Counted from the first letter of the stretch, positions 1 to 63,331 are shown. The stretch is 64,000 nt of DNA from Abditibacterium sp. (GCA_965199495.1 CBDASK010000003.1:2688001-2752000), one strand, 5' to 3'. A program made the numbers and translations. The notes: generated by a model not told the origin, from the letters alone.

Positions 1-1
1 C

Positions 2-3096: not shown

Positions 3097-4260
3097 ATGA
3101 CGAAATCCCGATTACCGCGCTCGCCAACGCTTTCTGTTTATGCTTCGGAATTGCCGACGCATTCACCAATAGCGCCGCGACCCCGGCGTCAGTCGTATAT
3201 GCCGCAACTCGATGCGTTGCGCGCATTTGCGGTGTTGGCGGTAATGTTCCAGCATTTTTATGGCAGCCACGTCGGGATTGATTTGCCTATCGGCGAGTGG
3301 GGCGTGCAGCTTTTCTTCGTGCTGAGCGGATTTCTCATCACCGGAATTTTGCTCGATTGTCGCGGGGACGACGAGGATTCAAATACAGAACAGCGTAAAA
3401 TTCAGATTCGCCGGTTTTACATTCGGCGCGCGTTGCGCATTTTGCCGCTATTTTATCTGGTTGTTTTGAGCGCGGCTTTGGTTAATATCCGCCCACTTCG
3501 CGAAAATTTAATCTGGCATTTGACGTATACGACCAACATTATGCTGGCCATCCGGGATAGCTGGGACGGCCCTGCTTCTCATTTGTGGTCGTTGGCGGTC
3601 GAAGAACAATTTTATCTGGTGTGGCCGTGGCTGATCTTGTGGCTGCCATCGAAATGGTTGAAACCGGCGATTTTGGGGATTATCGCTGTGGCGCCGCTCT
3701 ACAAAATCGGCGGTTACTTCGCCGGTGTTGGCTCGATTGCCTTAGCGGTTTTGACGTTGTCTTGTCTGGATGCGCTGGGCATCGGCGCCCTGTTGGCGCT
3801 TTATAAAAAGCGGCAACCGGAAGCATTCGCGGACTTAGTTCACAGCGAATGGCATCGCTGGCTGGGAGTTGGCGCGCTGTTTTTCGCTCTGCTGAGTTGG
3901 ATTTTCTGGGAAGAGCATTATTTCGTGCAGGTCGCTGGAACGCTGGCGGCCATTCTCTTTTTTAGTTGGCTCATTCATCGAGCCGCCGTGGGATTCACCG
4001 GCTGGCCCGGACGCGTGATGCGTTGGAAACCAATGCTTTATCTGGGACAAATTAGTTATGGACTTTACCTTTTCCATAAATTTATTTCCATCATTATGCC
4101 GCACGTCTTTAGTAAGTTAAAGTTGCCATATCCAGAAAATATAATGTTGCAAGCGCTATTGCTCATTGGAATTAATATCGCGTTAGCTTCGTGTTCGTGG
4201 TTTTGGTTCGAGCGCCCAATGAATAGACTAAAAAGTCGTTTTAAATATGAGATTAATTGA
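3097..4260 (+). CDS. Acyltransferase family 3 (OafA/YrhL-like membrane acyltransferase)
   Basis: LDALRAFAV, GVQLFFVLSGFLIT, FYIRRALRILP, HLWSLAVEEQFY, ISYGLYLFH, FERP motifs. Confidence 0.93.
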   Translation: MTKSRLPRSPTLSVYASELPTHSPIAPRPRRQSYMPQLDALRAFAVLAVMFQHFYGSHVGIDLPIGEWGVQLFFVLSGFLITGILLDCRGDDEDSNTEQRKIQIRRFYIRRALRILPLFYLVVLSAALVNIRPLRENLIWHLTYTTNIMLAIRDSWDGPASHLWSLAVEEQFYLVWPWLILWLPSKWLKPAILGIIAVAPLYKIGGYFAGVGSIALAVLTLSCLDALGIGALLALYKKRQPEAFADLVHSEWHRWLGVGALFFALLSWIFWEEHYFVQVAGTLAAILFFSWLIHRAAVGFTGWPGRVMRWKPMLYLGQISYGLYLFHKFISIIMPHVFSKLKLPYPENIMLQALLLIGINIALASCSWFWFERPMNRLKSRFKYEIN

Positions 4261-4978
4261 CCGCTAACGTTTTCGCCGCGTGCCACTGATGGGGAATATC
4301 GCGCATCAACAGCGCGTGATCGAACGCGATAGAACCGGGCGGGAACTTTCCGGTATCATCGAAAACGCTCGAATGAATCTGAGAAACTTTCAGAGCTTGC
4401 ACGCGCCAATTTTGCGTTTCCAATTGCATTCCGTCCAATATCTCCGAATCGCACCGCGCCGAATAGCCCAGACAACCGCGCTCGAAAAACGCCGAGGCTT
4501 CGTCAAGCGAAGCAAAAATCGAATTCGGTGGCAACATCTCTGTGATAACACCAGCCACGCGCAACGCGACCTCGCCATCACACGAACGCATTTGCACCTC
4601 GAATTCCGTCGCGCTTTCGCGCACCTCGAATTTCGCCAGATGCTGCTCGCCGGGAAAAAGGCGACCGCCGCTCCAAGCGTTGAGCCGCGAATTGGTATCG
4701 CGACGCGGAATGAAAACGCCCTCGCGCGTTTGGCCGTTTTCGTCCCACTCGACAGCAATGCGGTGCGCGGCGTTCTCGCTGGCGATGCCGCACGGCAACG
4801 GACTGAGCATCGGACGCATGGCTTCCAAGCGAATCAGGCACACGCCAACAATGGCGTGTCCGCCGTGCAGCTTGGGCCGAAACGGTGACGGCAATTGCGC
4901 GGCGACAATTTCGGAATCGGCGCGAAAGTTCGCTAAAATTCGCCGCGCGATCACGCCCTGAATGGTGGGAAGATTCAT
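4253..4978 (-). CDS. DUF2071/YqjF-like conserved protein
   Basis: RRILANFR, AIVGVCLIRL, SENAAHRIAVEW, GVFIPRRDT, GGRLFPG, DHALLMRDIPHQW. Confidence 0.7.
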   Translation of the reverse strand: MNLPTIQGVIARRILANFRADSEIVAAQLPSPFRPKLHGGHAIVGVCLIRLEAMRPMLSPLPCGIASENAAHRIAVEWDENGQTREGVFIPRRDTNSRLNAWSGGRLFPGEQHLAKFEVRESATEFEVQMRSCDGEVALRVAGVITEMLPPNSIFASLDEASAFFERGCLGYSARCDSEILDGMQLETQNWRVQALKVSQIHSSVFDDTGKFPPGSIAFDHALLMRDIPHQWHAAKTLAVN

Positions 4979-5051
4979 GGTTTTTTAATTGTTGACAACG
5001 CTCGCCCTTTTGACGTTTAATATCAAGTGCGCGTTTTTTATAAATATTACC

Positions 5052-5357: not shown

Positions 5358-5359
5358 GG

Positions 5360-5847: not shown

Positions 5848-5853
5848 AATTTA

Positions 5854-6510: not shown

Positions 6511-6521
6511 AGGGATTTTTC

Positions 6522-6618: not shown

Positions 6619-6626
6619 AAAGACGG

Positions 6627-8000: not shown

Positions 8001-8083
8001 GGAAGAGTTTCAAGACGAACGAGAACGAGATAAAGGTTTAACGGATAAACGCGCGCGCTGCTAATGGTTTCAACGGGCACTTC

Positions 8084-9946: not shown

Positions 9947-11878
9947 TCAAGTTCCGGGCACATTGATATTATCGTCAGCGCGGCGGATGATACGCGCGGT
10001 GAGGAAGATGATCAATTCTGATTCGTTTTCCGCCACTGTCTTGGAGCGGAACAAACCGCCGATGATGGGAATATCGCCGAGTAGAGGCACCTTTCTATCT
10101 TGACGCGAATTGCTTATGGTTTTGAGACCACCTAAAGCAATCGTATCTCCGTCACGCACATTAGCGACGGTTTCGAGTTGTCTTTGGGTGATCGTTCCAA
10201 TCCCATTATTGCCTCCACTTGGGTCAGGAGATTGGCTCGAAACCTGCGGCTGCATCAAAACGGTGATGGTATCGTCGCCGTTGATTGTTGGTGTTACGTT
10301 CAGCCCCGTGGTGGTGCTGATAAACAACAGGTTTTGTCCCTGTGCTTGCTGACCACCAATGTTTTGCGAAACCGAGGTCAAAATTACCGGGCGTCTTTCG
10401 GTCGATTGCAAGGAAGCCGTTAAGTTGTTGATCGCTGTTACGCGAGGAGCATTGATAAGCTTAGCACGGTTACTCGCCATTAATGCGGTGAGTTGAGCTT
10501 GAAAGTTACCGCGCACAAAGCCAACAGATATAGAACCGGGAGCTGAACCTGGAGAAAATCCATTGGTTGAAGCATCGAAATCTCCCCGTGAGGTAGAAAA
10601 GTCAATACCAAAGCTGTGCGCGTCTTGAGACTGAAGCTCGACGAACTGTGCTTCGATTTCGACTTGGCGCAGTGGCTGGTCGAGAACCGCGATCAATTCT
10701 CCCAGGCGACGAATATCTTCATCCGTTCCACCGGCGACTAACAACACGTTTTGTGGATCAACAGAAACGATCTGTTGAATATCGCCGGGCAAATCGAACG
10801 AGCCGCCAGCGCTATTGCCACCGCCGCCACCATTTCGATTGCCGCCGCGATTGCCGCCGCGATTGTTGTTGCCATTACCGCCGCCGCCGCCAAAGTTGCC
10901 CCCCCCGCCCCCGCCAAATTGCGAGTTCGCCCGCACTTCAGGCGAAATTAGGCCGGAAGATGAGTTCCGCAAATAGGGATTGGTATATGGCGCTGCTGGC
11001 AAATTGTTTTGGTTGAAATTATCGAAACCGAGACCGCTGTTGAGGCCATTGTTATCGAGCGCGGCGACTGCCAGAGGTTGATCACCATACCTTCGCTTGT
11101 TGCTTTCCGACAATTGTAACTGCGACGGCATCGAGTTATGCGCTGGATCGAGTTGGTAAGCAACCAAAGCCGAAGGCACGTTCTTAATTTTTATAGAACG
11201 CAGGGGGTTTCTATCGCTGTTGCCATTGACCTGAGCCAAAACAGGCAAGTCGCTATACATGGGATTACCCATCTGCTGTTGCCCAATGGGTGGCAACGCA
11301 TTGAAGTTGTTCCCGCCAAGATTCCCCGCATTAAACGGGGAATTTCCCAATCCGTTTTGCGCACCGAAACCGTTTTGCGCACCAAAGTTATTCGGTTGCG
11401 AAATCGGCGTCTGCGAAAAGCCACCACCAAAACTGTTGGGCGCCGCGCTTTGCTCCATCATGCCGGGCTGCTTTTTGGTCACAATGTAGGTGCCATTGTC
11501 TTTGGCAATCGCCAGATTGCCAGCAACTTTGATAACGGTTTGCAACGCTTCTTCAGGCGTTTTATTGACCAGATTAATCGAACTAATAACGCCATCTACA
11601 TCGGCGTTGACGGCTAAATTGAGGTTGAACTGTTCGGCCAGAGTGCTGAGCAATTGTTTGACGGGAATATCGCGAAATTGCAGATCTAAACCCGGTGTGC
11701 TAATTGCCGCTTTGGGCGCAGCCACGCTCTGTGGCACGGGGGCGCCGGGAATCGTTGGCAGAGACACTGCGGGGTCAACAACTGGGGCAATCGGCGCTTC
11801 TTGCGCATGAGCCGCCGTGACCATCAAACATCCTGCCAGAAGCGCACCGTGTGTTGGGTGCCAAAGTTTTTTCGACAT
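9947..11878 (-). CDS. Secretin (PilQ/GspD family) with STN and N domains
   Basis: Signal peptide (AAHA/Q), LDLQFRDIPVKQLL STN domain, LDQPLRQVEIEAQFVE, VRDGDTIALGGL, KVPLLGDIPIIGGLFRS, ELIIFLTARII. Confidence 0.93.
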   Translation of the reverse strand: MSKKLWHPTHGALLAGCLMVTAAHAQEAPIAPVVDPAVSLPTIPGAPVPQSVAAPKAAISTPGLDLQFRDIPVKQLLSTLAEQFNLNLAVNADVDGVISSINLVNKTPEEALQTVIKVAGNLAIAKDNGTYIVTKKQPGMMEQSAAPNSFGGGFSQTPISQPNNFGAQNGFGAQNGLGNSPFNAGNLGGNNFNALPPIGQQQMGNPMYSDLPVLAQVNGNSDRNPLRSIKIKNVPSALVAYQLDPAHNSMPSQLQLSESNKRRYGDQPLAVAALDNNGLNSGLGFDNFNQNNLPAAPYTNPYLRNSSSGLISPEVRANSQFGGGGGGNFGGGGGNGNNNRGGNRGGNRNGGGGGNSAGGSFDLPGDIQQIVSVDPQNVLLVAGGTDEDIRRLGELIAVLDQPLRQVEIEAQFVELQSQDAHSFGIDFSTSRGDFDASTNGFSPGSAPGSISVGFVRGNFQAQLTALMASNRAKLINAPRVTAINNLTASLQSTERRPVILTSVSQNIGGQQAQGQNLLFISTTTGLNVTPTINGDDTITVLMQPQVSSQSPDPSGGNNGIGTITQRQLETVANVRDGDTIALGGLKTISNSRQDRKVPLLGDIPIIGGLFRSKTVAENESELIIFLTARIIRRADDNINVPGT

Positions 11879-12032
11879 AATTAAGAGTGTTTCGCCTTTC
11901 AAAAGGCGCCGAAGTCCAAATCTTTCTGGTCTATCGGAAGCGTGCTAATCAGCTCCGATGTGTTTCGCGAAACGTTCGTTCAATAGAAACGATGCCTCGT
12001 TAGCGATAATGTGGGTTAAGGAACCGAGGCGA

Positions 12033-13025
12033 TTAGAATCCGCCGCCACCGAATCCGCCGCCGCCGCCACCGAATCCGCCACCGCCAAAGCCGCCACCGC
12101 CACCAAAGCTACCGCCGCCACCGAAGCTGCCACCGCCACCGAAGCTGCCGCCACCGCCACCGAAGCTGTTGTTGCTGCCGCCACCAAATCCGCCGCCGCC
12201 GCCGCCGTTGTTATTACTGTTGTTGCTTGTCTGGCCCGGCGTCACGAAAATGTCGGTGGTAATTGTCGAGCTGTTGGCAAACAGCGCCGCTATACCGCCC
12301 GAATAAACGTGCTTGATATTAATGATCGTATATTTGAGCGGCTCCGCAGGGGTGCCATTGTTGGCCCGCCCCCCGTTACGCCCACCCGCGCGCGGGTTGG
12401 TTTGCGAATTCGCCAAGGTTTGCACATCCGGCAACATCTGGCGGTTACTAAAATTGCGCGTGTTGCCTTGGGGGGCGCCACCAAAACCAAAGGGATTCGC
12501 GGGAGCCGAAGTCACGCCGCGTCCCGGAAATCCGCCTTGACCGGGGAAGCCGCCTTGGTTGGAGAAACCACTCTGACCCGGAAATCCGCCCTGACCGGGA
12601 AAGCCACCGGAGCCGGAAAATCCGTCCTGACCGGGGAAGCCACTGCTGCCATCGGGATTGAAGCCGAAGGGAATGCGGGGTTCAACGACATAAAGTCCAT
12701 CGCTATTGCGAGAGAATTTATAGTTGTAAGTCAGGCACAGCGAGCGCACCAAATCGTCCCATGCGATGTTAGAGCGTACGACATCGGGCACGTAAATTTG
12801 CGAAGCCGAAGCATCAATGGAACGGCTTTTGATGCCCGCCGAGTCGAAAACTAAGTCCAGCGCGTCTTTGAGGCTGGCATCTTTGATGTCCACGACCGCC
12901 AGACGCCCGCCCGCCGCCGGAGTCACGTTGTTTTGGGCCTGAGCCGCCAGAGGAGCCAGTAGCATTCCGCCCAACAAAGCTCCCGTCAGTAATGTGGTTT
13001 GGATGTTCGTTTTCATGGTGTTCAT
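12033..13025 (-). CDS. Secreted STN-domain protein with GF-rich repeats
   Basis: Signal peptide (AAQA/Q), VDIKDASLKDALDLVF STN-like segment, GGFPGQ repeats, poly-GGGF tail; RBS AGGAG. Confidence 0.75.
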   Translation of the reverse strand: MNTMKTNIQTTLLTGALLGGMLLAPLAAQAQNNVTPAAGGRLAVVDIKDASLKDALDLVFDSAGIKSRSIDASASQIYVPDVVRSNIAWDDLVRSLCLTYNYKFSRNSDGLYVVEPRIPFGFNPDGSSGFPGQDGFSGSGGFPGQGGFPGQSGFSNQGGFPGQGGFPGRGVTSAPANPFGFGGAPQGNTRNFSNRQMLPDVQTLANSQTNPRAGGRNGGRANNGTPAEPLKYTIINIKHVYSGGIAALFANSSTITTDIFVTPGQTSNNSNNNGGGGGGFGGGSNNSFGGGGGSFGGGGSFGGGGSFGGGGGFGGGGFGGGGGGFGGGGF

Positions 13026-13096
13026 TCTTTTATCTCCTATAAATTTCTACTGGCCATCGAAACGCCTTTAAACAAGGGCGCGTAGGAGACGCCCAT

Positions 13097-13126
13097 ATTA
13101 TAGCAGTTTTCGCGATTGCCCGCCAA
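13097..13126 (-). promoter_or_regulatory. Putative sigma70 promoter inside the pil operon, upstream of the STN and secretin genes
   Basis: TTGGCG-N18-TATAAT with TGn extended -10 on the minus strand. Confidence 0.5.
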
Positions 13127-13167
13127 TATCTTCTTTCCTTGACGCTTCAAACCCCGCGACGTTTGCT

Positions 13168-14214
13168 TTATCCGCGCGGAAAACCTCCGAATCCTCCGGG
13201 AGACCCGCCAAATCCACCGGGGCCACCAAATGCTCCGGGAGACCCGCCAAATCCACCGGGGCCACCGAATCCACCCGGCCCCTCGGCTCCAAATTCGCCG
13301 CCAGCGGCGGTGCGCGGTGGCCCCGGTTTGAGGTCAACGGTGCGTTCGCCGCCATTCTCGCGAATCAGCATCCGCGTGACCTGCGTGCCGCTTTCGTTAT
13401 AGCGCCGAATATTGAGGATCGTAATGCCTTCGACCACATCTCCGGGCTGCACCACATAAGTCTTGGGAACATCCCCTCCGCTAATTTCCAAAATGGCGCG
13501 CACTCCATTTCCGATGACGACGCCTGACAAACGTTTGTCGAACGAGGGTGAGGCCGTGCCGGAACCAGCGCCGCTCGAAGAGCGAGGCGGCGGAAACGCG
13601 TTGGTGGGCGCGAGTTTGGTGGAATTCAAACGCGGAATGACAACTGCTGGCAGCACCAATGGCCCTTCGCCCGCACCGGAACCGTTAATGCCGGGCACCG
13701 CGAAACCGGGAGCTGGAGCGCCGCCGCCGAAACCGCCGCCAGGACGCGGAATATCTACCGGTTCGATTTGCGGAATTACGACGGGTTGCGGGATGGGCGT
13801 CGGTGTTGGCACGGGCGGCGCTGGCGGCGGCGGCGGTGTGGGCGTGGGAATAATAAAGAACGGCTGAAAGGGATCGCGCCGGTAGGGCGAGAGTGGCAAC
13901 AGCGTGGACGGATTGCCAACCGTGCTGATCTGCGTGGCTGTCGCGGGTGGAATGCCGCCGTTAGCCAGCGTCGAGCCGGGCGCCCCCGCTTCGGCTCCCG
14001 AATCCAGAGGAACACCTGCTGCGTTCGCGGCGACGGAATTAGTCGCCGCAGTTTGAGTGCCTCCGCTCATCGAACGCATGACGAAAAAGCCGCCGATGCC
14101 CAACGCCGCAATGCCAGCCACGCCCAAAGCGATGAATAACTTCTTTTTGTCGGTTGAGGTCGAATCGCTCGCCGCAGGAGTCGGTGACGGCGGAGCGCCG
14201 GAAGAATTAGCCAT
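13168..14214 (-). CDS. Pilus assembly protein (PilP-like position), Pro-rich membrane-anchored
   Basis: N-terminal TM, RRDPFQPF motif, C-terminal RLSGVVIG...YVVQPGDVVEG beta domain; operon position. Confidence 0.6.
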   Translation of the reverse strand: MANSSGAPPSPTPAASDSTSTDKKKLFIALGVAGIAALGIGGFFVMRSMSGGTQTAATNSVAANAAGVPLDSGAEAGAPGSTLANGGIPPATATQISTVGNPSTLLPLSPYRRDPFQPFFIIPTPTPPPPPAPPVPTPTPIPQPVVIPQIEPVDIPRPGGGFGGGAPAPGFAVPGINGSGAGEGPLVLPAVVIPRLNSTKLAPTNAFPPPRSSSGAGSGTASPSFDKRLSGVVIGNGVRAILEISGGDVPKTYVVQPGDVVEGITILNIRRYNESGTQVTRMLIRENGGERTVDLKPGPPRTAAGGEFGAEGPGGFGGPGGFGGSPGAFGGPGGFGGSPGGFGGFPRG

Positions 14215-14380
14215 GATAGAAATTTAAGAAAAGGGGAGGGCATCCATAACCCTCCCCATAGAAATTGACGGCAACGCTGGGTTAGAACTTCCACGCGTTC
14301 CAAAGTTACAAATTGTTTTTTCTGGCTTCAAACGGCTCACTGACCGTTGCTGAAACCTCATCCTTGCTTGAAACCGCGAT

Positions 14381-15214
14381 TTAAATCGCGGGCGCTGGTG
14401 CCGAACTTGGTGGAGCGCCAGTCGCGCTCGGAGTTCCGCCTGAATCTCCCAAGGCGTTGGGAGCGCCTGCTGCTCCGCCAGCAACTACTGCTGCCGCGGC
14501 TCCCGGACGGGCCGCGTCAATGCCGGGAATCGGGGCGGCTTGAGCGGAAGGCCCAGAAACCAACAAATAAGGCGTGATAGTGAAAGTCGCTTCGATGTTG
14601 GGCGTCGTGCCCGCCATTTTCACGTTGCCAATCACCATCAAAATCTCGGAACGGTTGATGATCTGAAAGAAATTGAGAATGCTTTCAAAAGTTCCCGTCA
14701 CCGAAACTGTCAGTGGCGCGGCTTGTGGCTTGAGCAAACCGCTGGGAGGAGAATAGACATCTTCGGGGTTTTGCGGCGGCGCATCCACTTTGATGTTGGT
14801 CTTAATCTGTACGCCACTTTCGTCGGCGGCACGAATCAATTGACTGCGCGCTGCCAAACCAAATCCCGACGCGTATTCATTCAGGTAACGCACGAAAGTG
14901 GCGTTGCGCGGCCCCTGTCCCGAAACCGGCGTCTCGGTTAAATCGAACGGCAAGCTGCGGTAACGCGTGCGGAAATATTGGAGTCCGCCTTGCGCCAAGT
15001 CCAGCCGTTGCTGAGCCAAAAGCGCCGCTTTAAGCGTTGGAGCCAACTTGTCCGCGCTGGCTTTTTCCGTAGTGTAATTGGTATTAGTCGTCGTCAGTTG
15101 GCTGACGACTTGGTCGTAGAAGCGGAACTTCCACACGAGCACCATCGCCACAATCAGCACAAAGGCGCCGACGAGTGTGCCGATCCATGCGTGGCGTAAT
15201 TTTTTTTCGTTCAT
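14381..15214 (-). CDS. PilO-like type IV pilus assembly protein
   Basis: TM + coiled coil + VSVTGTFESILNFFQII ferredoxin-like signature; follows pilN-like gene. Confidence 0.7.
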   Translation of the reverse strand: MNEKKLRHAWIGTLVGAFVLIVAMVLVWKFRFYDQVVSQLTTTNTNYTTEKASADKLAPTLKAALLAQQRLDLAQGGLQYFRTRYRSLPFDLTETPVSGQGPRNATFVRYLNEYASGFGLAARSQLIRAADESGVQIKTNIKVDAPPQNPEDVYSPPSGLLKPQAAPLTVSVTGTFESILNFFQIINRSEILMVIGNVKMAGTTPNIEATFTITPYLLVSGPSAQAAPIPGIDAARPGAAAAVVAGGAAGAPNALGDSGGTPSATGAPPSSAPAPAI

Positions 15215-15281
15215 TAGATATTAAGTCAAATTTCTCGCGATTAAGACCCCGTGTTACCGGGAAATTCGCTAATTAGCCACC

Positions 15282-16142
15282 TTAGCCAGGCGTTGGAGCG
15301 GGTTGAGGTACGGTACGATCATTTGGCACGATGGGTGGCGGCGGCGCTCCCGGCCCACCAGACACACCCGGCGATCCCGATGAACTTGGCCCACCCGGCC
15401 CGCCCGGCGATCCCGATGCACCCGGCCCACCAAATCCACCCGGCGCTCCTGTTGCGCCTGCGGCTCCGGCGGCTCCATTGGCAAGAGCGGGGTCGGGAAT
15501 AACTGGAATCGGGTATTTGAGCGGCCCCTGCGCTGTGACTTTGAGCGGATAAACCAAAATAACGGGTTGGTCGGTGGGAATCGCTGGTGGCACGAACGCG
15601 GCGGCGCCGTTGTTAAATCCGCCAACGCCCGAAGCCTTGGGCGCCAGAGCGAATAACGGCCCGGCGTCGGTTGTCGTCGTTCCTGCGGGTGGCGGCCCGG
15701 CGCGGCGCAGATTGAAGAGGAATTGCGCGTATTGATTGGGATTTTTGACCGAAGCCTGAACCACCGCGTTTTGACCATCGCTCAAATCAATGGACTGCAC
15801 GACGGTATCAATGTAAATATATTGGCGCACCTGATTGAGTAGCGCCGCGCGTTGCGGCCCCGACTTGCCCGCCGTCAGCATGAAGGTGATGGTGTCTCTA
15901 AACGGCTGTGCGGCAGTGACTGCCGCAGTTTCTGTGTCCGCCGCCGCCTTGGTTTGATTCGAGACCACGGTTACCGCAGCCAGATTTTGCTTGGCCGTCC
16001 CCAACTCTTTCTTTTTGGAGTCGAGTGCCATCGCCAGACCGGTGCCCACCAAGGCGACAGTCAGCACGCTGGCCGCAATGGCAAGCTCAAGGTTACGCCG
16101 TTGTTTGACGTGGCCGGGCAGAAGATCGATTTTAATCGCCAT
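15282..16142 (-). CDS. PilN-like type IV pilus assembly protein
   Basis: N-terminal IKIDLLP (variant of the PilM-binding INLLP motif), TM, coiled coil. Confidence 0.78.
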   Translation of the reverse strand: MAIKIDLLPGHVKQRRNLELAIAASVLTVALVGTGLAMALDSKKKELGTAKQNLAAVTVVSNQTKAAADTETAAVTAAQPFRDTITFMLTAGKSGPQRAALLNQVRQYIYIDTVVQSIDLSDGQNAVVQASVKNPNQYAQFLFNLRRAGPPPAGTTTTDAGPLFALAPKASGVGGFNNGAAAFVPPAIPTDQPVILVYPLKVTAQGPLKYPIPVIPDPALANGAAGAAGATGAPGGFGGPGASGSPGGPGGPSSSGSPGVSGGPGAPPPPIVPNDRTVPQPAPTPG

Positions 16143-16382
16143 GAGAAAAATTAAGCCAAATGTTTGTGCCGGGAAACCGAAAGTGCCGAAACTCCGACCG
16201 AAAATTTGATGTTCTCCAAAGAGCCGTTCTCAAATTTTATCATCGTTCCCTTTTTCGTTGCTGCTCCCGAACCGCCATCACTAAATCACCAATTTTGCCC
16301 CCGATTCGAGGGCTTTGCACCTTATTCATCCCGATCCAGATCGCGTTTTTGCGCGCCCGAACTTTTGAGCGGGTCATTCTAT

Positions 16383-18842
16383 TTACTCGATAAAGTCGCG
16401 CAGTGCCAGTCCCAGCGCCACCGCACACAGCGGCGCGTTGGTCGGAACAAATTCTGTTGGCAATCCCGGCGCGTTGACTTTGATGTTATTGAATGGGTTG
16501 CCCACGCTGGCGGGCACGCCCAGATTGTTCGCCAAAAACTCGTCCAGATTGCGCAACTTGGCGCCGCCGCCGACCAACACCAAACGCGAGAACGTGGTGT
16601 CGGGGTAGCGTCCCAAATGGAATTCCAGCGAGCGCCGCACTTCGGTCGCCAAATCGTCCAAAACCGGCTGCATCGCCGCATAAAGCGTGGCGTCGTCGGT
16701 TTCGCTGGTCTGGCTCAGGCCAGCGCCAAACGTCGAGAAATCTTCGCTTCCGCTCGCTGTGGCATTAAGCGCGCCCATATCGAAGTCGTCCGCGCTGGCG
16801 TCACCGCCGAACATATTGGCATCGAAACCACCATCGTCCGCCGTGGCTGCAACAGCAGCCACGGCGGGTTCGCCCGCCGCGACGGGCGCGCCAAACATAT
16901 CGTTCACGTCGAAGGCCGCATCATCGGCATTCACATCGTCGGCCAGAGGTTCGCCCACGGCTGCGACATCCGCGCCTTTGTCCAACGAAACCACCGGTTC
17001 GAGCGTCGGTTCGATGATAATAGCTTCGTCGGCAATGGGTTCCTCGTCTGTGATCGCGGGTTCATCAATCGTCTTTTCAAAGCTCAACGGCGCCGCGACT
17101 TGCGGGGTATCTTCCAGAGATTCCGCCGCTAAAGGCTCGGTCGCTGGAGCTTGTTCCGCCAAAGTATTATCGCTGAAACCGAAACTAAACGCCGCAGGCG
17201 CGGGCGTCGCCGGAACTGCTGGGGTTGGAACTGCCGAAATTGGTGCTGGTGCCAAAGCATCCGTGTCGTCGGAGAGTTTTTGCGTGGGCGCTGTAATTTC
17301 CGTCTCCGTGGCGCCTGAACCGACTTTCGCCGGGGCTTTGACAGTGGGCAAATCGAAATCGGAAAAGTCGAAGGCCGAAGGAATCGCGGGCGTCGCGGGC
17401 GTCGCGGGTGCAATGGGCGTCGCGGGCGTCGCGGGCGTCGCGGGTGCAATGGGCGTGGCTTCGATTGGTTGTGTGCTGGCGCTTGCGGCGCTTGCGACGG
17501 TTGCGTCCATCGCGGGCAGAAACGTATCGTCTAAATCGAAGTTGTCTGTGCTCGGCGGCGCGGCTTCGGCGCTGGGCGCCGGAATCGGTGGCGGCGGCGA
17601 GGCGGGCGTCACGTCCTGTTTGGCAATCGAGGGCGAAAGGTCGTCGTCCATGCTGTCGAACGAAAAGTTGATGCCCGATGGTTGGTCGGCTTCGTCGTCC
17701 TCTTTCTGGCCGTGACCGGCTCCCGGCTCCGACTGCTGCGGCCCCTGATCGAAAAAGTCCAAATCAAACGGATCGTCCGAACCCGCCGTTGCCGCGCTCG
17801 TGTCGGTCGCCGTGGCTGTTGTCGCGGGCGCGGTTGTGGTGGCGGTATCGGCGCCGAAGTCGTCGGCGCCAAAATCCATATCCGGCGAAAAATCGGCGGC
17901 CCCGCCACCGAAATCGCCAAAGTCGCCGAAATCATCACCCGCGCCCGCGCCGTAACCGGTGGGCGGCAACGCATCACCGCGTTCGATTTTGAGGCGCTCG
18001 GCGTCCGCAGTCGGAATGCCCATGCTTTGGGCGATGGCCTGCGTCAGGGCGCCGCCGCCGTTGGGCACGCTGCGCGTGAAGACCACGATGTCGCCGCGCA
18101 AAATCGAAATTTCGGTGCTGGTCTGGCCGATGTTCAAAACAGCCGTCACATCGTCGTAATCAATGATTGGGTTTTGCGCGCGCAGTTCGAGCTGCATCGT
18201 GCGCGCCAACGCGAGCGGTTCGACATCAATGGCGCGCGGCGTTAATTTGGCTTTTTGCACGACGGCGATATGCAAATCAATGATTTCGCGTTGCGCCGCC
18301 GCCAGCAAAACTTCCATGTTGGCCGCATCCGGGTCGGATGGCAAATCGCGGAGCGCCCTGAAATCCATCACGACTTCTGAAGGTGGAAACGGGATATAAC
18401 GGTCGGCGTCCACGCGCATGTTGTCGGCGAGTTCGCCGTCGGTCATTTTGGGCACTTCGATGACGCGCACGACTAAGGAACCGCTACCGGCGACCGAAAA
18501 AATCGTCGCTTTACTGCTCAAACCGGCCTGTTTCCACATGGTGCGGATGGCGTTGGAAAGAGCGGTCACGCTCAAAACGTTGCCGTTGGCATAGCTTTCG
18601 GGCGGCGTGGCGATAACGCCCATGCCGGTCACCGTGAGTTGGCCGCCTTTGGAGGTCACTTCGACGGCTTTGATAAAGGCGTTGCCGATGTTGAGACCGA
18701 CGACGGTGCCACTGGTGGAAACAGTGGATTTCACCGGTTTATTCGCTTTAACTTTGCGCGCCTTGACAGCCACTGGGGCTGCTGCGGGCGCGGCGTTAGC
18801 TGGGGCGGAAGTATCCGCGTTCTTTTTGCCGAAAAGAGCCAT
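16383..18842 (-). CDS. pilM: Type IV pilus assembly protein PilM with about 440-aa low-complexity insertion
   Basis: VGLNIG...IKAVEV, RYIPFP, EVLLAAA, IDVEPLALAR, LNIGQTSTEI, EVRRSLEF, LVGGGAKL, ALGLALR. Confidence 0.92.
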   Translation of the reverse strand: MALFGKKNADTSAPANAAPAAAPVAVKARKVKANKPVKSTVSTSGTVVGLNIGNAFIKAVEVTSKGGQLTVTGMGVIATPPESYANGNVLSVTALSNAIRTMWKQAGLSSKATIFSVAGSGSLVVRVIEVPKMTDGELADNMRVDADRYIPFPPSEVVMDFRALRDLPSDPDAANMEVLLAAAQREIIDLHIAVVQKAKLTPRAIDVEPLALARTMQLELRAQNPIIDYDDVTAVLNIGQTSTEISILRGDIVVFTRSVPNGGGALTQAIAQSMGIPTADAERLKIERGDALPPTGYGAGAGDDFGDFGDFGGGAADFSPDMDFGADDFGADTATTTAPATTATATDTSAATAGSDDPFDLDFFDQGPQQSEPGAGHGQKEDDEADQPSGINFSFDSMDDDLSPSIAKQDVTPASPPPPIPAPSAEAAPPSTDNFDLDDTFLPAMDATVASAASASTQPIEATPIAPATPATPATPIAPATPATPAIPSAFDFSDFDLPTVKAPAKVGSGATETEITAPTQKLSDDTDALAPAPISAVPTPAVPATPAPAAFSFGFSDNTLAEQAPATEPLAAESLEDTPQVAAPLSFEKTIDEPAITDEEPIADEAIIIEPTLEPVVSLDKGADVAAVGEPLADDVNADDAAFDVNDMFGAPVAAGEPAVAAVAATADDGGFDANMFGGDASADDFDMGALNATASGSEDFSTFGAGLSQTSETDDATLYAAMQPVLDDLATEVRRSLEFHLGRYPDTTFSRLVLVGGGAKLRNLDEFLANNLGVPASVGNPFNNIKVNAPGLPTEFVPTNAPLCAVALGLALRDFIE

Positions 18843-44325: not shown

Positions 44326-44438
44326 AATCCGCGCCATTGGTCATTTTGTCGCGTTAGCCTGTAAGCGTTAGTCTCTAAAGTTAGCCGTAATTGTTTCGTC
44401 TGTTTGCCGTGTTGTTCGAGCGGTTGATTTTTCCAGCC

Positions 44439-48585: not shown

Positions 48586-48595
48586 ACAAACTATT

Positions 48596-48856: not shown

Positions 48857-48939
48857 CTTGCGATTTCGACGCGCGGATGGAAAAGATACTTAGCCAAAAA
48901 CTCTTTCGGCACAGCGCGGCGGCTGTCAAAATTGAAGGG

Positions 48940-51249
48940 ATGACTTCGCCCGCGCCCTCCATTCTTCTCGAAATTCAACACGACCAAAACGGACGCATTT
49001 ATTCGCACGTCCGCCAGAAATATCTCGTCGAAACGCCCGAAGAGCGCGTGCGCCAGGAATATCTGCTCGTTTTGCACAACGAATACGGTTATGCGCTCGA
49101 CCAGATTGATGAAGAAGTTGACCCGAATCAGAGCGGCAAACAGCGCGGAACCGCGCAGGCGCGCGCCGACTTCGCGATTTATCGGAGCGCCGCCGACAAG
49201 AACGGCGACGCCACGCCGCTTGTGATCGTCGAGTGCAAATCCGATAACGTCACCATCCGCGAAACCGATTATCAGCAGGGCGAAAACTATGCGCGCCTCA
49301 ACGAAGCGCCGTTTTTCGTGACGCACAATTCCAAAGAAACGCGCTTTTGGAAAGTTCTTAAAGACAAGCGGCCCGGCTATCGTCTGGAAATCTCCGACAT
49401 TCCGCACGCGCACGATTCGCAAAAAGAGATTGACGCGCTTCTAACCAAACTCAAAACCTTCAAAGAAGACGATTTCGCGTCGCTCTTGCACAAATGCCAC
49501 AACATCATTCGCAACCGCGACCATCTCGATCCGGCGGCGGCGTTTGATGAAATCGCCAAAATTCTTTTCGTCAAAGTGTGGGTCGAACGCGATATGCGCG
49601 CCAAAAAATTGCGTCTCAATCGCTTCACCACCGATTACATGGACAGCTTGCCCGGTCACGCGCCGCTCGATTTGCTGTTTACCGAAACCCGCAATTCCTA
49701 CAAAGGCGCGCACATTTTCCGCGACGACGAAAAGATCAATCTCAAAGCCGAAACGGGCCGCGCCATCGTCAAGGAACTGGAGGTTTACAATCTTTCCGAT
49801 ACTTCGGAAGATATTAAAGGCATCGCGTTTGAGCGGTTTCTGGGGCGCACATTCAGGGGCGAAATCGGCCAGTTTTTCACGCCGCGCTCGATTGTCGAAT
49901 TTATGATTCGCATGATTGACCCGCGCAAAGACGACATTATTTGCGATCCGGCGTCGGGTTCGGGCGGCTTTTTGATTCGCTTTTTCGAGATGGTGCGCCA
50001 ACAACAATTGGCGCAGGCCGACGCGCGTTATGCCGATTTCAAAGCGAAGGTCGAAGCCGACGTGGCTCTTAATGACGAGACGCGCGGCGCCCAACTGCGC
50101 GAGGAATATCGGGCGATTCAAATTCATCTGAAACAGCAGTTGGATCGTTTGGCCAACCACCAGATTTTCGGCACCGACGCCAATGACCGCATGGCGCGCA
50201 CCTCGAAAATGAACATGATTATGCACGGCGACGGACACGCCGGAGTGCATCACCGCAACGGATTTCTCAACGTCAACGGCATCTTCGAGGGCCGTTTTTC
50301 GGTGATTCTGACCAATCCGCCGTTTGGTTCGAGCGTCGAGGAAACCGACCGCGTGCCCGTCGAACCGATGGATCGCGAGGTCGAAGACCGCTACATCCAA
50401 CTCTACGGCAAACCCTACGAAGACGAACTGGCGCGCCAACGTAGCCACGCCGCCAGAGGCCCGAAAGATTCGGCGATTGCCAAAATGTTCGATCTGGGAC
50501 AGCGCGGCACCAAAATCAAAACCGAAATCCTGTTTATCGAACGCTGTCTGCGCTTGCTCCAGCCGGGCGGACGCTTGGGCATCGTGTTGCCCGAAGGCAT
50601 TTTTAACAATCCCTCGCTCGATTATGTGCGCGAGTATTGCGAAGACCGCGCGCAAATTTTGGCGGTCGTGTCGCTGCCGACCGAAGCCTTTGTCGCGTCG
50701 GGCGCCAGCGTCAAAACTTCGCTGCTTTTCCTGAAGAAGTTCACCGACGCCGAAAAACTCGATTACGACACGCAATTGCATCAGACGCGCTTGGAGATTC
50801 GCGGCAAACATCAAAGCCGCGTTGACCAAATGAACGCCGAATTTGACGCGCGCATTTTGGCCGCGCGCCAAACCAAAAACATGGGCGAGCGCAAACTCGC
50901 TGAATCCGAGCAGCGCGCGTTCAAGAAAGCTGAAGCCGCGCGGCAGGAGATCGAAACGCGCGCGCTTCACAAAGAACGTTTCGCTTATAACGTGTTTTTA
51001 TACGAAGCTCAAAACGTCGGTATCACCGCGACGGGCGACGACGATTGGAACGAACTGTTGCCCGCCAATGACGAAGCCAATCCGCGCGGTTTGCCGTCCG
51101 GTGTCACGGTTTCGACGTTGGAAATGTATCGTCTTTTCCGCGACGATGCGCCCGCCTTCGCCGCCGCGATGCAAGCGCAAATCGAAGCGCAAGCCGCCGA
51201 AACAGACGACGAAGACGAGTCCAACGCCGAAGAAGAGGAGGGCGCATGA
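48940..51249 (+). CDS. Fused endonuclease (HsdR_N-like) + N6-adenine methyltransferase (type IIG/IIB-like RM subunit)
   Basis: PEERVRQ, ADFAIY...IVECK nuclease; GQFFTPR, DPASGSGGF (motif I), NPPF (motif IV), GIVLPEG. Confidence 0.92.
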   Translation: MTSPAPSILLEIQHDQNGRIYSHVRQKYLVETPEERVRQEYLLVLHNEYGYALDQIDEEVDPNQSGKQRGTAQARADFAIYRSAADKNGDATPLVIVECKSDNVTIRETDYQQGENYARLNEAPFFVTHNSKETRFWKVLKDKRPGYRLEISDIPHAHDSQKEIDALLTKLKTFKEDDFASLLHKCHNIIRNRDHLDPAAAFDEIAKILFVKVWVERDMRAKKLRLNRFTTDYMDSLPGHAPLDLLFTETRNSYKGAHIFRDDEKINLKAETGRAIVKELEVYNLSDTSEDIKGIAFERFLGRTFRGEIGQFFTPRSIVEFMIRMIDPRKDDIICDPASGSGGFLIRFFEMVRQQQLAQADARYADFKAKVEADVALNDETRGAQLREEYRAIQIHLKQQLDRLANHQIFGTDANDRMARTSKMNMIMHGDGHAGVHHRNGFLNVNGIFEGRFSVILTNPPFGSSVEETDRVPVEPMDREVEDRYIQLYGKPYEDELARQRSHAARGPKDSAIAKMFDLGQRGTKIKTEILFIERCLRLLQPGGRLGIVLPEGIFNNPSLDYVREYCEDRAQILAVVSLPTEAFVASGASVKTSLLFLKKFTDAEKLDYDTQLHQTRLEIRGKHQSRVDQMNAEFDARILAARQTKNMGERKLAESEQRAFKKAEAARQEIETRALHKERFAYNVFLYEAQNVGITATGDDDWNELLPANDEANPRGLPSGVTVSTLEMYRLFRDDAPAFAAAMQAQIEAQAAETDDEDESNAEEEEGA

Positions 51250-52598
51250 GCAACTGGAATCGCGTCGTTATCGTAGCCTCGAATGAGATGCAGAATTGGA
51301 GCGTTAGCGCCATTCCTAAAGTGAAGTGGAATTGGCCAGCAGAATATATTTTGCCTATGGGAACGGCGTTTCAACGATGCCTCAAAGAGGTTCCGCGCAA
51401 ACAATACGGCAATCCAGATTTGCGCCTTATCACTATCAAGTTTGATGGTTCGATACATTTGCGCACGGCGGACACACGAAATTTTAAAGGCGCTCTTTTT
51501 TATGCTCGCCCCGGCGACGTTGTGTATTCGAGAATTGACGCGCGAAATGGCGCGATTGGAATTGTGACTGACCGAATCGGCACAGCAGCCGTGAGTGGCG
51601 AGTTTCCGGTTTACCGCATAAAAGAAGAGGTTGCGACAGCCAAATTTATCTTTTTGCTTTTTCGCTCTCATCCTTTTCGCAAAACCATTAACGCGTTAAT
51701 TAGCGGGACAAGCGGGCGAAAAAGAGTGCAACCGCATCTATTGGAATCTATTAATGTTCCGCTTCCGCCGCTCGCAATTCAAGCGCAAATCGTGGCCGAT
51801 TGGGAAATCGCCGAACGCCAATATCGCGCGGGTTTGGCGTCGCTCGCGCAGCGCGAAGCCGATAATGACGCGCAATTTCTGGCCGCGTTGGGTTTGCAAT
51901 CGCCTAAACCCGCGCCGCCCACGCGCTGTCTGTCGGTCGCATGGAAAGAGATGGAGCGTTGGAGTAAGTCGGCGACAGAAATTCTCGCGCAAATCAATTT
52001 GAAAGATTGTTTATTCCCAATTGTGTCCGTTGAAGAATGCGTTCATGAAATTCGGCATGGTTGCTCTGATAGTCCTCCCAAATGGAAAACCGATTTGGAA
52101 ACTCTGAAAATTAGCGCCGTTACCAAAGGTTTCTTCAAACCTGACGAACGAAAATCTGCTGTCGATTCCGCCAGAAACCGACGAGACTTTGACCTAAAGC
52201 AAGGAGATGTTTTGATGTGCCGCACTAATGGCACATTGCGTTATGTGGGAATGTCGGCGCTGGTCGCAGAAGATTTTGACAACCTGATTTTTCCCGATAA
52301 AGTAATTCGTCTGCGAGTCAAAAACAACCTTTTGCCGGAGTATCTTTGGAAAGTGTTACAAACGCCGGTTCTGCGAACACAAATTGAAAGCATGGCCCGA
52401 ACTTCGGTTGGCAATTACGCCATTGGAAGCCAAGAAATTTGGCAGTTCAAAATTCCCCTGCCGCCGCTCGAAGTCCAGCGCGCGTTGATGGAAACAATGG
52501 CGGCGCAACGCGCGCACATCGCGAGCGAACACGCCGCGCTCGACGCAAACTTTGCCGACGCTAAAATGCGGCTCGAACGCGCTTTGCTGGGCGCATAA
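51246..52598 (+). CDS. HsdS-like specificity subunit (two TRDs)
   Basis: [44 protein letters not shown] overlap with the MTase gene. Confidence 0.9.
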
Positions 52599-52664
52599 GC
52601 AGCCACGCCGTGCGAAACACTCGTTCGGCGTGGCTGCTTGCGAGCGGCGTTTGCGTCTCACCTA

Positions 52665-61313: not shown

Positions 61314-61363
61314 CGAAGTCTCGCGCGGGGCAACGTCGCGCGCGCCAAAACTTCTAACTCTCC

Positions 61364-63331
61364 GTGTTTTCTCGTTTTCTGCTCGCGCCCGCCTTGCTGG
61401 CCCTAACAGCCACGGCGGCTATCTCCACGGCGCACGCGGCGCCGCTCACTTTTCTCGATGACGAAGCCGAACCCGGCGGTTACGACGTAACAGCCACCGT
61501 CACGGCGCCCGCGCAACTGGCGTTGTCGCAGCAGGAAAATGGCGACGGCTATAGTTTTAAAGTCGCGCCCGGCACGCTCGAACTCGATGTGACGAACAAG
61601 GGCGTAACGCGGGTTTTGGAGCGCCAAAACAATTTAAATTTCCAGTTTCCCCTTCAGTTGGTGGCGCAGCGACGCGGGCGGCGCTGGAACTTTATGCTGA
61701 ACGGCAAAAGTGGGTTGCGCGCCGAAGACGAAGACTTTAGCGACGGCAAAATCGGCTTTTCGGGCGGCGTTAAAGACGCCAAAGTGCAGCCGGTCGAGCC
61801 GATTACCTTTGACGACGATTTCATGCGCATCGCCAGCGATGTCGCGATGAAAGACGCGATTGCCAATCCGCGCAACGGCGTCACCATCAAGGGCGCCGCC
61901 ATCACCGAAACGATTTGGACGACTTTAACCGGCGCGTGGGCGACGACGGGATTGACCGAAAACGATGCCGCGCAGGTCGCGCAAAGTGCCAATCCGTTCG
62001 CGTTTCGCGCGATGAACAAAGGCGACAACCTCGCCGTGGCTGGTCGTCCGTTCTGGAGCGATGTCGAGTTCTCGGTTTCGGTTGCGCCACAGGGTGCGCA
62101 GGAAATCGGACTGTTACTGGACGTGACCGACGCCCGCAATTATCTCGAATTTAGTTGGGGCGCCGATTCCGACCCGATGCTACGCGCGGTTGCCGACGGA
62201 AAAACTTATGTTCTGGGTGCGGCCAAAGGTTATGGCGGCTACGAGCAAGACCAATGGACGCGCCTAAAATTCACCGCGTCGAACGGCGCTTTGACCGCCG
62301 CGATTGATGATGTGCAAGTCGTGAGCGCGCACTCCGGTTGGGGCGGACGCGGCCAGATCGGTTTGCGCGCCCAATTGCCTGACGTGGGCGACGACAAAAA
62401 AGGCATCGGCGCCGTTTTCGATGACGCGCGCGTGCGCACACTCGACGATTTTCGCGACAATTTCGGCGCCGTCGTGCCCGGTCGCTGGCAACCCGTCGTC
62501 GGAAAATGGAATTGGAAGGGCGCCGCCAAACCGCTCGATAGCGGCAGCGATTACGCTGTCACGGGCGAAACCAGTTGGGCGAATTACACCGTTTCGGGCG
62601 ATTTGAACGTGCCAACAAACGGCGCGACGGGCTTGCTCAGCCATCATATCGCGGGCAAAGGCGCCTATTTGCTGCGCGTTGGCGGCTCGAAGTCGCCCAT
62701 CGCGCCGGGTGAGGTTCAACTGGCGCGCATCGGCGGCGGCAAAACGCAAATTCTGGGCGAGATAAGTGTCGGCACGCGCTACGATAGTTCTAAAATTAAT
62801 TGGGAACTGGGCGAAGAAAACGGTTATCTCAGCGCGCGCGCCGACGGCAAATTAATTTTGGATGCGTTCGACGAAACCTTGCCCGACGGGCGCGCAGGCG
62901 TTTACGCGCAAAACGGCAGCGTCGGTAATTTCGCGGTCAAGTTCGACACAACGCGTCCGACGTGGGCCAAAGTGCCCGAACTTTACGAAGTCGAGCAGCA
63001 GGCCGCGACAATGGGCAGTTGGTCAACGCCGCAGGGGTTCTGGCTGGCGAGCGGCGCCGGAGCGGCCCAGACGTGGGAACACAAAGGCGAATTTTGGGGC
63101 GATAGCGAAATCAATTTTCCTCTCCCCGATTTGAGCGGCGACAAAAGCGCGCAACTGACTTTGGGCGCGCTCGATGTGAAATTCAACGCGAAGGAAGTTG
63201 CGGTCGGCGACGCCAAAGGTTCGCTCAAAGACGTAAAGGCGGGCGTGCCGATGGAAGTCGCGCGGCGCGGAAACTGGGCGATCGTGCGCGCCGATGGGAA
63301 AGTTGTGTTGGCGGCGAAGGTTGGAGCGTAA
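61364..63331 (+). CDS. Secreted beta-sandwich (concanavalin/DUF1080-like) repeat protein
   Basis: Signal peptide (AHA/A); repeated DDF...W, WSDVEF/WANYTV, GQIGL/GRAGV motifs. Confidence 0.7.
   Translation: MFSRFLLAPALLALTATAAISTAHAAPLTFLDDEAEPGGYDVTATVTAPAQLALSQQENGDGYSFKVAPGTLELDVTNKGVTRVLERQNNLNFQFPLQLVAQRRGRRWNFMLNGKSGLRAEDEDFSDGKIGFSGGVKDAKVQPVEPITFDDDFMRIASDVAMKDAIANPRNGVTIKGAAITETIWTTLTGAWATTGLTENDAAQVAQSANPFAFRAMNKGDNLAVAGRPFWSDVEFSVSVAPQGAQEIGLLLDVTDARNYLEFSWGADSDPMLRAVADGKTYVLGAAKGYGGYEQDQWTRLKFTASNGALTAAIDDVQVVSAHSGWGGRGQIGLRAQLPDVGDDKKGIGAVFDDARVRTLDDFRDNFGAVVPGRWQPVVGKWNWKGAAKPLDSGSDYAVTGETSWANYTVSGDLNVPTNGATGLLSHHIAGKGAYLLRVGGSKSPIAPGEVQLARIGGGKTQILGEISVGTRYDSSKINWELGEENGYLSARADGKLILDAFDETLPDGRAGVYAQNGSVGNFAVKFDTTRPTWAKVPELYEVEQQAATMGSWSTPQGFWLASGAGAAQTWEHKGEFWGDSEINFPLPDLSGDKSAQLTLGALDVKFNAKEVAVGDAKGSLKDVKAGVPMEVARRGNWAIVRADGKVVLAAKVGA

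Follow-up and report, generated by a model that had tools for sequence, protein, structure and literature searches.

An iterated octamer resembling DNA uptake sequences in a subclade of Abditibacterium

The octamer CAGCCACG is scattered over both strands of a 64-kb stretch of DNA from an Abditibacterium sp. (positions 2688001-2752000 of C3, the chromosome in a three-contig assembly that also comprises C1 and C2; the whole stretch is hereafter the window, and this genome G000). We propose, with a probability of about 0.55, that this word, extended as a-G-CAGCCACG-[G/C]-C-G, acts as a DNA uptake sequence comparable to the DNA uptake sequence (DUS) of Neisseriaceae and the uptake signal sequence (USS) of Pasteurellaceae, and that it arose independently in one Abditibacterium subclade (Abditibacteriota/Armatimonadota). 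This explanation was favored because the word matched the known signals in its density, its presence on both strands, its reading-frame bias, its hairpins, its dialects and its scarcity in mobile DNA. In the literature searched, neither orientation of the octamer was found as a word.

The word in the window and across the chromosome

Fifty exact copies were present in the window, 27 on the plus and 23 on the minus strand (Table 1), as compared with 2.08 expected (standard deviation 1.44, largest value 7), and none of 100 dinucleotide-preserving shuffles reached 50. The 10-mer CAGCCACGGC was found 25 times, for an expectation of 0.21. These counts bear out an earlier, sequence-only reading of the window, which had noted a strong over-representation, with at least 48 octamers and about 24 ten-mers; all 48 coordinates that it listed were correct, but it had overlooked the copies at 3264 (+) and 55438 (-). 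It had also placed most copies in coding sequences, often in linkers, and had seen none in rpsO-pnp or in the restriction-modification (R-M) genes. Indeed, 45 of the 50 copies lay within called open reading frames (ORFs), mostly read as xAVAAx or xA(A/T)ATAx, and no copy occurred in 1-3263 or 48228-52599. The R-M genes are bordered by a copy on either side (48220 and 52600). The gap that they form fits the Poisson expectation by itself and is only suggestive.

Two pairs of inverted copies in the window can form hairpins. The one inside the PilM-like ORF (16842-16863; predicted fold -31.4 kcal/mol, z -5.1) is one among the 78 intragenic inverted pairs of the genome. The intergenic one (52600-52636; -43.4 kcal/mol, z -4.9) resembles a terminator in which a clear U-run is missing.

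The sequence-only reading had taken the octamer for a candidate lineage-specific self-DNA tag and had named as checks codon-preserving shuffles, high-order Markov models, replichore skew, depletion in prophages and islands, dialects in related genomes and ComP- or ComE-like receptors; it had also considered that the enrichment might be local. It was not local to the window, as the 4.72-Mb chromosome (55.7% GC) contained 3,083 copies (1,558 on the plus and 1,525 on the minus strand), i.e. 0.65 per kb. The ratio of observed to expected copies under an order-3 Markov model was 13.2, the highest among all 8-mers present 300 times or more; the words ranking next in this list overlap CAGCCACG. The most frequent 12-mer of the genome was GCAGCCACGGCG, with 690 copies. 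A position matrix gave the extended form mentioned above, with C at +9 in 82%, G at +10 in 75%, G at -1 in 58% and A at -2 in 49% of the copies. Neither the octamer nor its extended forms are self-complementary, as a palindromic word of the HIP1 type would be. Single-mismatch variants affecting the first and last positions of the core were enriched 2-4 times, indicating that the strict core is AGCCAC.

Two other features of the word composition of this genome were observed. The commonest 8-mers are CG-alternating (CGCCGCGC and similar words), with 3,000-5,000 copies each despite a GC content of 55.7%, and a second iterated word, CGTAGAGA/TCTCTACG, is present in 303 copies, about 6 times the order-3 Markov expectation.

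Genes were called with a crude codon-model caller (3,689 genes, 84% coding). Of the 3,083 chromosomal copies, 2,852 (92%) lay wholly within genes. Two reading frames, antisense frame 2 (xAVAAx; 1,223 copies) and sense frame 1 (AAT[A/P]; 839 copies), accounted for 72% of the intragenic copies, while the four remaining frames held 322, 307, 93 and 68. Relative to transcription, 44% of the copies were in sense and 56% in antisense orientation, a ratio that results from this frame preference. To distinguish the word from a consequence of coding, we permuted synonymous codons within each gene, which preserves the proteins and the codon usage of each gene (20 shuffles). The 8-mer then appeared 265 ± 15 times (maximum 299), compared with 2,853 observed, and the 12-mer 7.8 times (maximum 14), compared with 630. 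Shuffling the order of the codons yielded 204 and 1.9, respectively. The synonymous shuffle is a conservative null model, because the rare codons that it redistributes exist largely owing to the word.

The word also left its mark on codons and proteins. AVAA peptides were spelled GCCGTGGCTGCN in 285 of 389 cases, and AATA peptides GCAGCCACGGCG in 284 of 367 cases. The codons involved are rare in G000 (GCT 10% and GCA 5.9% of the alanine codons, ACA 8.1% of the threonine codons), in agreement with the earlier impression that they are less favored. Comparisons of peptide frequency, and of coding with non-coding DNA, between species relied on simple ORF calls based on GC content at third codon positions, in 400-kb samples. 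On this basis AVAA occurred 40 times per 100,000 residues in G000, as compared with 21 and 11 in two word-free species of the genus, and AATA 29 times, as compared with 8.6 and 4.7. The word has therefore altered protein content, the two peptides being 2-6 times commoner than in word-free genomes of the genus.

Both orientations were equally used over the whole chromosome (1558:1525; binomial p 0.56). The cumulative orientation curve departed from zero by at most 71 of 3,083 copies, and splitting the chromosome for the greatest skew gave 490:419 versus 1068:1106 (54:46), with the origin and terminus unmapped and a very weak GC skew; no replichore or leading-strand skew was therefore apparent. 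The spacing of the copies was more regular than random (coefficient of variation 0.928, as compared with 1.000 ± 0.018 and a minimum of 0.949 in 500 simulations), with a median gap of 1198 instead of 1061 ± 18. Among neighbors less than 60 bp apart in G000, we counted 97 inverted but only 6 direct pairs (p 3e-22). Of these inverted pairs, 78 were intragenic, 4 at gene edges and 15 intergenic. Over the three carrier genomes described below, the ratios of close inverted to direct pairs were 97:6, 65:4 and 9:2. An estimate from the frame frequencies of G000 indicated that frame preference alone predicts about equal numbers of inverted and direct pairs; the excess of the former and the shortage of the latter are therefore not accounted for by it.

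Lineage, origin of the copies and foreign DNA

The public polynucleotide phosphorylase (PNPase) loci nearest to that of G000 are labelled Abditibacterium or Abditibacteriota. Among the 27 genomes of the family, the core was counted 3,091 times in G000, 2,676 times in G011 and 3,503 times in G004; the other 24 contained 130-530 copies, which is the level of a reversed-word control. A search for GCAGCCACGNCG in 301 genomes of the phylum found 1,350, 1,047 and 431 copies in G000, G011 and G004, respectively, and at most 49 elsewhere, about the control level. The word is carried by 3 of the 13 genomes of the genus and missing from 10. The three carriers form a clade in a PNPase tree (support 100/100), the PNPase identity to G000 being 90% in G011, 87% in G004 and 75-85% in the others. 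These findings, with the scarcity in foreign DNA reported below, support computationally the proposal that the word may be a lineage-specific self-DNA tag.

The flanks of the core were the same in G011 as in G000. G004, as the sequence-only reading had anticipated for related genomes, has a dialect of its own, with the same core but other flanks, cGACAC-CAGCCACG-TCCTAcg. In a 400-kb sample of this genome, from which its dialect figures are derived, 126 of 290 copies formed 63 inverted pairs, arranged as intergenic hairpins of about 60 bp with conserved arms of about 23 nt that contain, close to the loop, a GTAG/CTAC box (fold of one example, -51 kcal/mol). The remaining 164 copies, which are single, likewise favored the flanks of G004 (45 ACCAGCCACGTCC versus 7 AGCAGCCACGGCG). 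The word was denser in non-coding than in coding DNA of G004 (2.0 versus 0.51 per kb), the reverse of what the same crude ORF calls gave for G000 (0.18 versus 0.78 per kb); apparently, the longer dialect is less tolerable inside genes. In samples of 400 kb from the non-carriers G009 and G012, the only iterated words were short CAG-type repeats and a CRISPR repeat; in the other eight non-carriers, CAGCCACG alone was looked for.

We aligned 16 sites of the window to the relatives. G011 has kept the core at 10 of them, and at the orthologous sites the non-carriers differ by one to several substitutions, with no insertion. Copies arise, hence, by point substitution. In a sample of 208 kb aligned to G011 (85% identity), 102 cores were shared, 27 were specific to G011 and 47 to G000. 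This corresponds to a retention of 79% (102/129) and 68% (102/149), as compared with 41.5% for composition-matched 8-mers (p 4e-18 and 5e-11); between these two genomes, copies are kept about twice as well as comparable 8-mers, above the neutral rate. A sample of 230 kb aligned to G004 (79% identity) contained 35 shared cores, 44 specific to G004 and 94 specific to G000. The shared sites tended to have flanks of the G000 type and the sites specific to G004 those of G004, which suggests that the G000 type is ancestral.

Foreign DNA was nearly devoid of the word. The chromosomal rate predicts 42 copies for C2 (64,557 bases) and 16 for C1 (24,667 bases); the two contained 6 and 2, respectively, which is in both cases about the background due to composition. 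Of the 85 ORFs of these small contigs, 30 were scanned. C2 is a complete-looking tailed phage genome (terminase, head protease, major head protein, a 2,400-aa tape measure, tail protein, RecT and Gam; PHROG matches in 9 of 18 scanned ORFs), and C1 is plasmid-like, with an anti-restriction gene and a serine invertase (matches in 2 of 12). On the chromosome, ten stretches totalling 251 kb had at most 2 copies per 15 kb, our definition of a desert (Table 1). They contained 35 copies, i.e. 0.14 per kb, versus 0.68 per kb in the rest of the chromosome. All ten carried hallmark genes of acquired DNA (mobile, defense, CRISPR, prophage or glycan genes), as found by scanning 160 of the 176 listed ORFs and one added from our own gene caller. 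An Rfam scan of two deserts gave no match. The predicted depletion in prophages and islands was thus observed: in ten islands and in both small contigs, the phage and the plasmid-like one, the word was at background level. Word-free stretches provide a simple map of foreign DNA in carrier genomes.

Two of the deserts contain arrangements worth recording. At C3:514000-517700, in the 504-525 kb desert, genes for multiubiquitin, a metal-binding CEHH domain and a prokaryotic E2 fused to a ThiF-type E1 form what looks like a ubiquitin-like conjugation module of defense. At C3:1917000-1922500, a 5-methylcytosine (m5C) DNA methylase and two ORFs of no assigned family lie between a full thiC and a second fragment comprising only the ThiC C-terminus, which resembles an island whose insertion was accompanied by a partial duplication.

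Proposed role in DNA uptake and competing explanations

If the word is an uptake sequence, a surface component of the type IV pilus and DNA-import apparatus would bind double-stranded DNA bearing the word better than other DNA. Word-bearing fragments from relatives would be imported via the secretin, ComEA and ComEC, and DprA and RecA would then assist in their recombination. Point mutations creating the word would hence be transmitted more often, a molecular drive. Selection on proteins would limit their persistence to the two least harmful frames (AVAA and AATA/AATP) and to poorly conserved or non-coding stretches. We infer that biased uptake is the driving step and a pilus protein the reader.

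Pfam searches found the pilus and secretin genes that the sequence-only reading had seen in the window (Table 1), and the type IV pilus operon would be part of the machinery that an uptake signal requires. Genes for PilB, PilT, PilC, PilD, a DUF1559 pilin, three N-methyl pilin-like proteins and two 1,300-aa proteins are situated elsewhere in G000 (C3:861-881 kb). G000 also has ComEC, a ComEA-like HHH_3 protein and DprA. Of what the sequence-only reading had suggested looking for under receptors, ComEA-like, ComEC, DprA and pilus genes are thus present, and a clade-specific receptor was not found among three minor pilins.

The word shares with DUS, which are read by the minor pilin ComP, a frequency of about one copy in every 1-1.5 kb, the use of both strands, scarcity in mobile elements and dialects between related species. 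The absence of DUS has been used to find integrative and conjugative elements in Neisseria, according to the available part of PMC7371117. A further likeness, going by the excerpted text of 10.1101/2025.10.24.684340, lies in inverted pairs forming intergenic hairpins and in a reading-frame bias within genes; the excess of close inverted pairs observed here likewise matches inverted-repeat DUS and USS in that text. The differences are also clear. The host phylum is unrelated, so that common descent does not apply (the host groups with Abditibacterium), and CAGCCACG differs from the canonical GCCGTCTGAA given in the same excerpt, GCCGT and CTG being present in both, possibly by chance. In G000, 92% of the copies are intragenic, as compared with 34% in N. 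meningitidis in the source portion at hand, and no ComP-type receptor was identified among the minor pilins of the pilus locus.

With USS, the word has in common a short core with weaker flanks, many intragenic copies in tolerated frames and in less conserved parts of proteins, a spacing more even than random, and two subtypes in sister lineages. The molecular-drive model proposed for USS also fits the origin of the copies by substitution and their retention. The flanks, however, are GC-rich here and AT-rich in USS. The receptor for USS is predicted to be ComN/PpdA in the part of PMC12616744 that is available.

Several observations weigh against an uptake sequence. The 10 word-free genomes of the genus have the competence genes just as the carriers do (ComEC in 13 of 13 genomes, the ComEA-like HHH_3 protein in 12 of 13); being common to carriers and non-carriers, the import genes do not explain who carries the word. 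No clade-specific receptor emerged when the three minor pilins of the pilus locus (C3:868592-872591) were searched as proteins in the 13 genomes. Orthologues occurred in 11, 13 and 11 of these, with identities of 35-49% in non-carriers with a full-length orthologue (29-32% in two of them), 57-86% in G011 and 47-64% in G004; a search at the DNA level indicated that the pilin genes of this locus diverge fast. The internal single-mismatch variants of CAGCCACG were mostly at or below expectation, some being clearly depleted (CAGCCAGG, 0.23 of expectation; CAGCCATG, 0.42; CAGCCGCG, 0.44), unlike the USS of Haemophilus, of which many one-off variants exist. In G000, the word reaches a higher density in coding DNA (0.72 per kb) than outside it (0.31 per kb), while about half of the known DUS and USS are in terminators (10.1101/2025.10.24.684340, excerpted text). 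Copies of G000 were retained in G004 no better than background (35/129 versus 26.4%), retention above background being seen from the side of G004 alone. Finally, we found no uptake or transformation experiment for the phylum, and the literature on Abditibacterium and competence consisted, judging by titles and the openings of abstracts, of microbiome surveys, with no transformation study.

We considered the possibility that another directional process acts on the whole word, either biased repair or gene conversion, or the selection of thousands of sites for an abundant chromosomal protein. Enrichment, retention, absence from foreign DNA and restriction to a clade show only that some process favors the whole word, and any such process would be expected to produce the same statistics. 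Sequence-specific biased repair or gene conversion has been proposed for iterated words linked to methyltransferases, such as HIP1 of cyanobacteria, which resembles CAGCCACG in occurring about once per kb, in genes against codon habits and in a lineage-specific manner, but is palindromic. The near-miss depletion at several internal positions is what conversion of near-misses would give, G000 has two m5C methyltransferase loci, and the failure of the competence genes to separate carriers from non-carriers suits both repair and protein binding. Yet the word is not palindromic, and the near-misses are depleted over many positions and bases rather than at one deaminated cytosine. One of the two methyltransferase loci sits in a word-free island, and a resident repair bias would eventually act on integrated islands too. 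Very-short-patch repair was rejected as a candidate, because Vsr gave a sub-threshold partial match alone (24.5 bits for a Pfam cut-off of 27). As to protein binding, 3,000 individually selected sites in coding DNA are hard to justify. We therefore regard this whole group of explanations as rather unlikely.

A second alternative is a mobile or nuclease-linked hairpin repeat, of the REP/REPIN type with its Y1 transposase RAYT or of the Ssn type with a small GIY-YIG nuclease, the intragenic single copies being decayed or captured halves. The form that the word takes in G004, an intergenic hairpin of about 60 bp repeated hundreds of times, with 126 of the 290 sampled copies in 63 such hairpins, resembles both REP/REPIN and the NTS/dRS3 repeats associated with Ssn. 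Y1 transposase genes were also found in 12 of the 13 genomes of the genus, and a small single-domain GIY-YIG gene in G000 and G004. Ssn-associated repeats, too, are hairpins (20-50 nt, according to the partial text of the source). By contrast, 92% of the copies in G000 are intragenic single 8-13-mers created by point substitution in conserved sequence, and the word in G011 also takes the form of single, mostly intragenic 8-13-mers, whereas NTS repeats are only 2% intragenic, according to the same partial text. Y1 genes also occur in word-free genomes, and no flanking tie to Y1 or GIY-YIG genes was found at the loci checked: of 6 Y1 loci in G000, none had a close inverted pair of the word at its flanks, and 1 of 4 in G004 had a pair nearby. 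The link to RAYT was rejected on these grounds. So was that to Ssn, the GIY-YIG gene being flanked by other, longer palindromes and being present in word-free G006 as well. This explanation is improbable overall; it is plausible for the hairpins of G004 alone.

A recombination hotspot of the Chi type or a polar chromosome signal of the KOPS type would likewise be a non-palindromic, over-represented octamer of self DNA, scarce, like Chi, in foreign DNA. Those signals are co-oriented with replication, while CAGCCACG has no polarity (largest excursion 71/3,083, best split 54:46), and its enrichment of 11-80 times, with a specificity of about 18 bits, seems far beyond that of Chi, a comparison made from general knowledge. 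RecC was not found in the 95%-complete G000 genome, AddAB not having been searched for. We consider this explanation very unlikely. A by-product of the amino-acid and codon composition of alanine-rich linkers, which the concentration of the copies in the AVAA and AAT[A/P] frames might suggest, is refuted by the shuffles and has next to no chance of being correct, as the word imposes rare codons, inflates AVAA and AATA relative to the relatives, and also occurs in non-coding DNA, where most of the copies of G004 lie.

With respect to the uptake-sequence explanation, the odds appear about even that the word represents a third, independently evolved system, the first outside Proteobacteria, observed shortly after its emergence in a young Abditibacterium subclade. 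The excerpted text of 10.1101/2025.10.24.684340 presents uptake sequences as belonging to two proteobacterial families, and in the review PMC12378983 they appear in the reference list alone. If the proposal is correct, two species share one dialect, mainly in genes, while a third would have shifted to a longer dialect that moved into intergenic hairpins; the clade would be a natural experiment on the origin and drift of uptake specificity and of its genomic footprint. The origin of uptake signals is an old question that cannot be addressed in the known families, all of whose members have them already. In the present case, the sequence that preceded the word at each site can be read in sister species, and the dialect shift is visible among the carriers. 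With 3 carriers among 13 genomes, the origin of the signal, molecular drive and the search for the reader therefore become directly testable, and a comparison of carriers with non-carriers could be used to look for the reader protein. The proposal predicts, in a phylum without genetics, natural transformation in which self DNA is preferred, and word-bearing DNA might make poorly studied members of this phylum genetically tractable.

Features of the window and minor observations

The coordinates of the word copies, of the genes discussed and of the deserts are collected in Table 1.

Table 1. Word copies, genes and word-poor stretches. Coordinates refer to the window, except for those of the deserts, which refer to the chromosome.
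Feature	Coordinates	Strand	Description
CAGCCACG, first 14	3264, 4552, 5523, 7037, 9500, 11719, 14115, 16856, 20927, 25084, 28712, 29637, 31722, 33006	+	
CAGCCACG, other 13	33567, 34619, 39252, 40711, 45307, 47831, 52600, 53085, 54570, 56803, 58403, 60031, 61407	+	
CAGCCACG, first 12	3626, 6698, 9291, 13933, 16842, 17811, 19742, 23237, 23855, 26438, 27391, 35489	-	
CAGCCACG, other 11	36413, 38238, 42006, 45569, 48220, 52629, 53496, 55438, 60293, 61064, 62035	-	
Span of all 50 copies	3264..62042	both	
Inverted pair	16842..16863		inside PilM-like ORF; hairpin with 13-bp stem; read as ..AVAAVAATA..
Intergenic inverted pair	52600..52636		begins 2 bases past the stop of the restriction-specificity gene
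PNPase gene	451..2943	+	2.5 kb without any copy; phylogenetic marker
Type IV pilus outer-membrane operon	9947..18842	-	PilM-like gene, four ORFs and secretin
Secretin	9947-11902	-	Pfam Secretin 6.8e-40
Four ORFs	12033-16142	-	no Pfam match; between PilM-like gene and secretin
PilM-like protein, 819 aa	16383-18842	-	Pfam PilM_2 4.6e-60
Tad-type pilus genes	42985..47534	+	RcpC/CpaB-like protein (RcpC 1.8e-9) and 1047-aa secretin (Secretin 6.2e-43, T2SS-T3SS_pil_N 3.8e-11)
R-M genes	48877..52598	+	790-aa N6 methylase/HsdR_N fusion and specificity subunit; 3.7 kb without the word
Desert	430-453 kb		ParB, PD-(D/E)XK nuclease, serine recombinase, Mrr, TIR
Desert	504-525 kb		ubiquitin-like E1/E2 cluster
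Four deserts	1.116-1.257 Mb		three large serine recombinases, HsdR, TIR, KAP NTPase, transposase, SNF2/PLD genes
Desert	1.345-1.37 Mb		low-GC glycosyltransferase/Wzt cluster
Desert	1.909-1.924 Mb		m5C methylase island adjoining thiC
Desert	2.762-2.777 Mb (C3:2762001-2777000)		10-25 kb past the window end; CRISPR-Cas: Cas3-like, Cas1, Cas2; array repeat k-mers about 131 times
Desert	4.230-4.255 Mb		prophage (capsid, portal) and TnpB-type gene

The 819-aa PilM-like protein of the pilus operon has a PilM_2/FtsA-type N-terminal region and a second actin-like match (MreB_Mbl) near its C-terminus, which suggests a fusion or an internal duplication. G000 contains about 48 prepilin-like genes (N-methyl, many of them DUF1559), and its relatives 20-150; the conserved N-terminal 130 bases of these genes act as a dispersed DNA repeat in BLAST searches.

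A gene for an AlwI-family restriction endonuclease (window 35684-37330, minus strand) contains a single copy of the word (at 36413), whereas the R-M genes at 48877-52598 have none. At C3:3607888-3608100, the small single-domain GIY-YIG gene of G000, with homologues in G004 and G006, lies between long, near-perfect palindromes with arms of 56 and 80 nt, a layout that resembles that of Ssn nucleases and their hairpin repeats in the available part of PMC11893778. An intergenic palindromic element of about 175 nt at 22210-22385 of the window, with terminal inverted arms of about 50 bp (DNA fold -78.8 kcal/mol), is devoid of CAGCCACG and has the appearance of a miniature inverted-repeat transposable element. 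It is present at about 15 places in G000; in G011 and G004, both strands carry it at many places.

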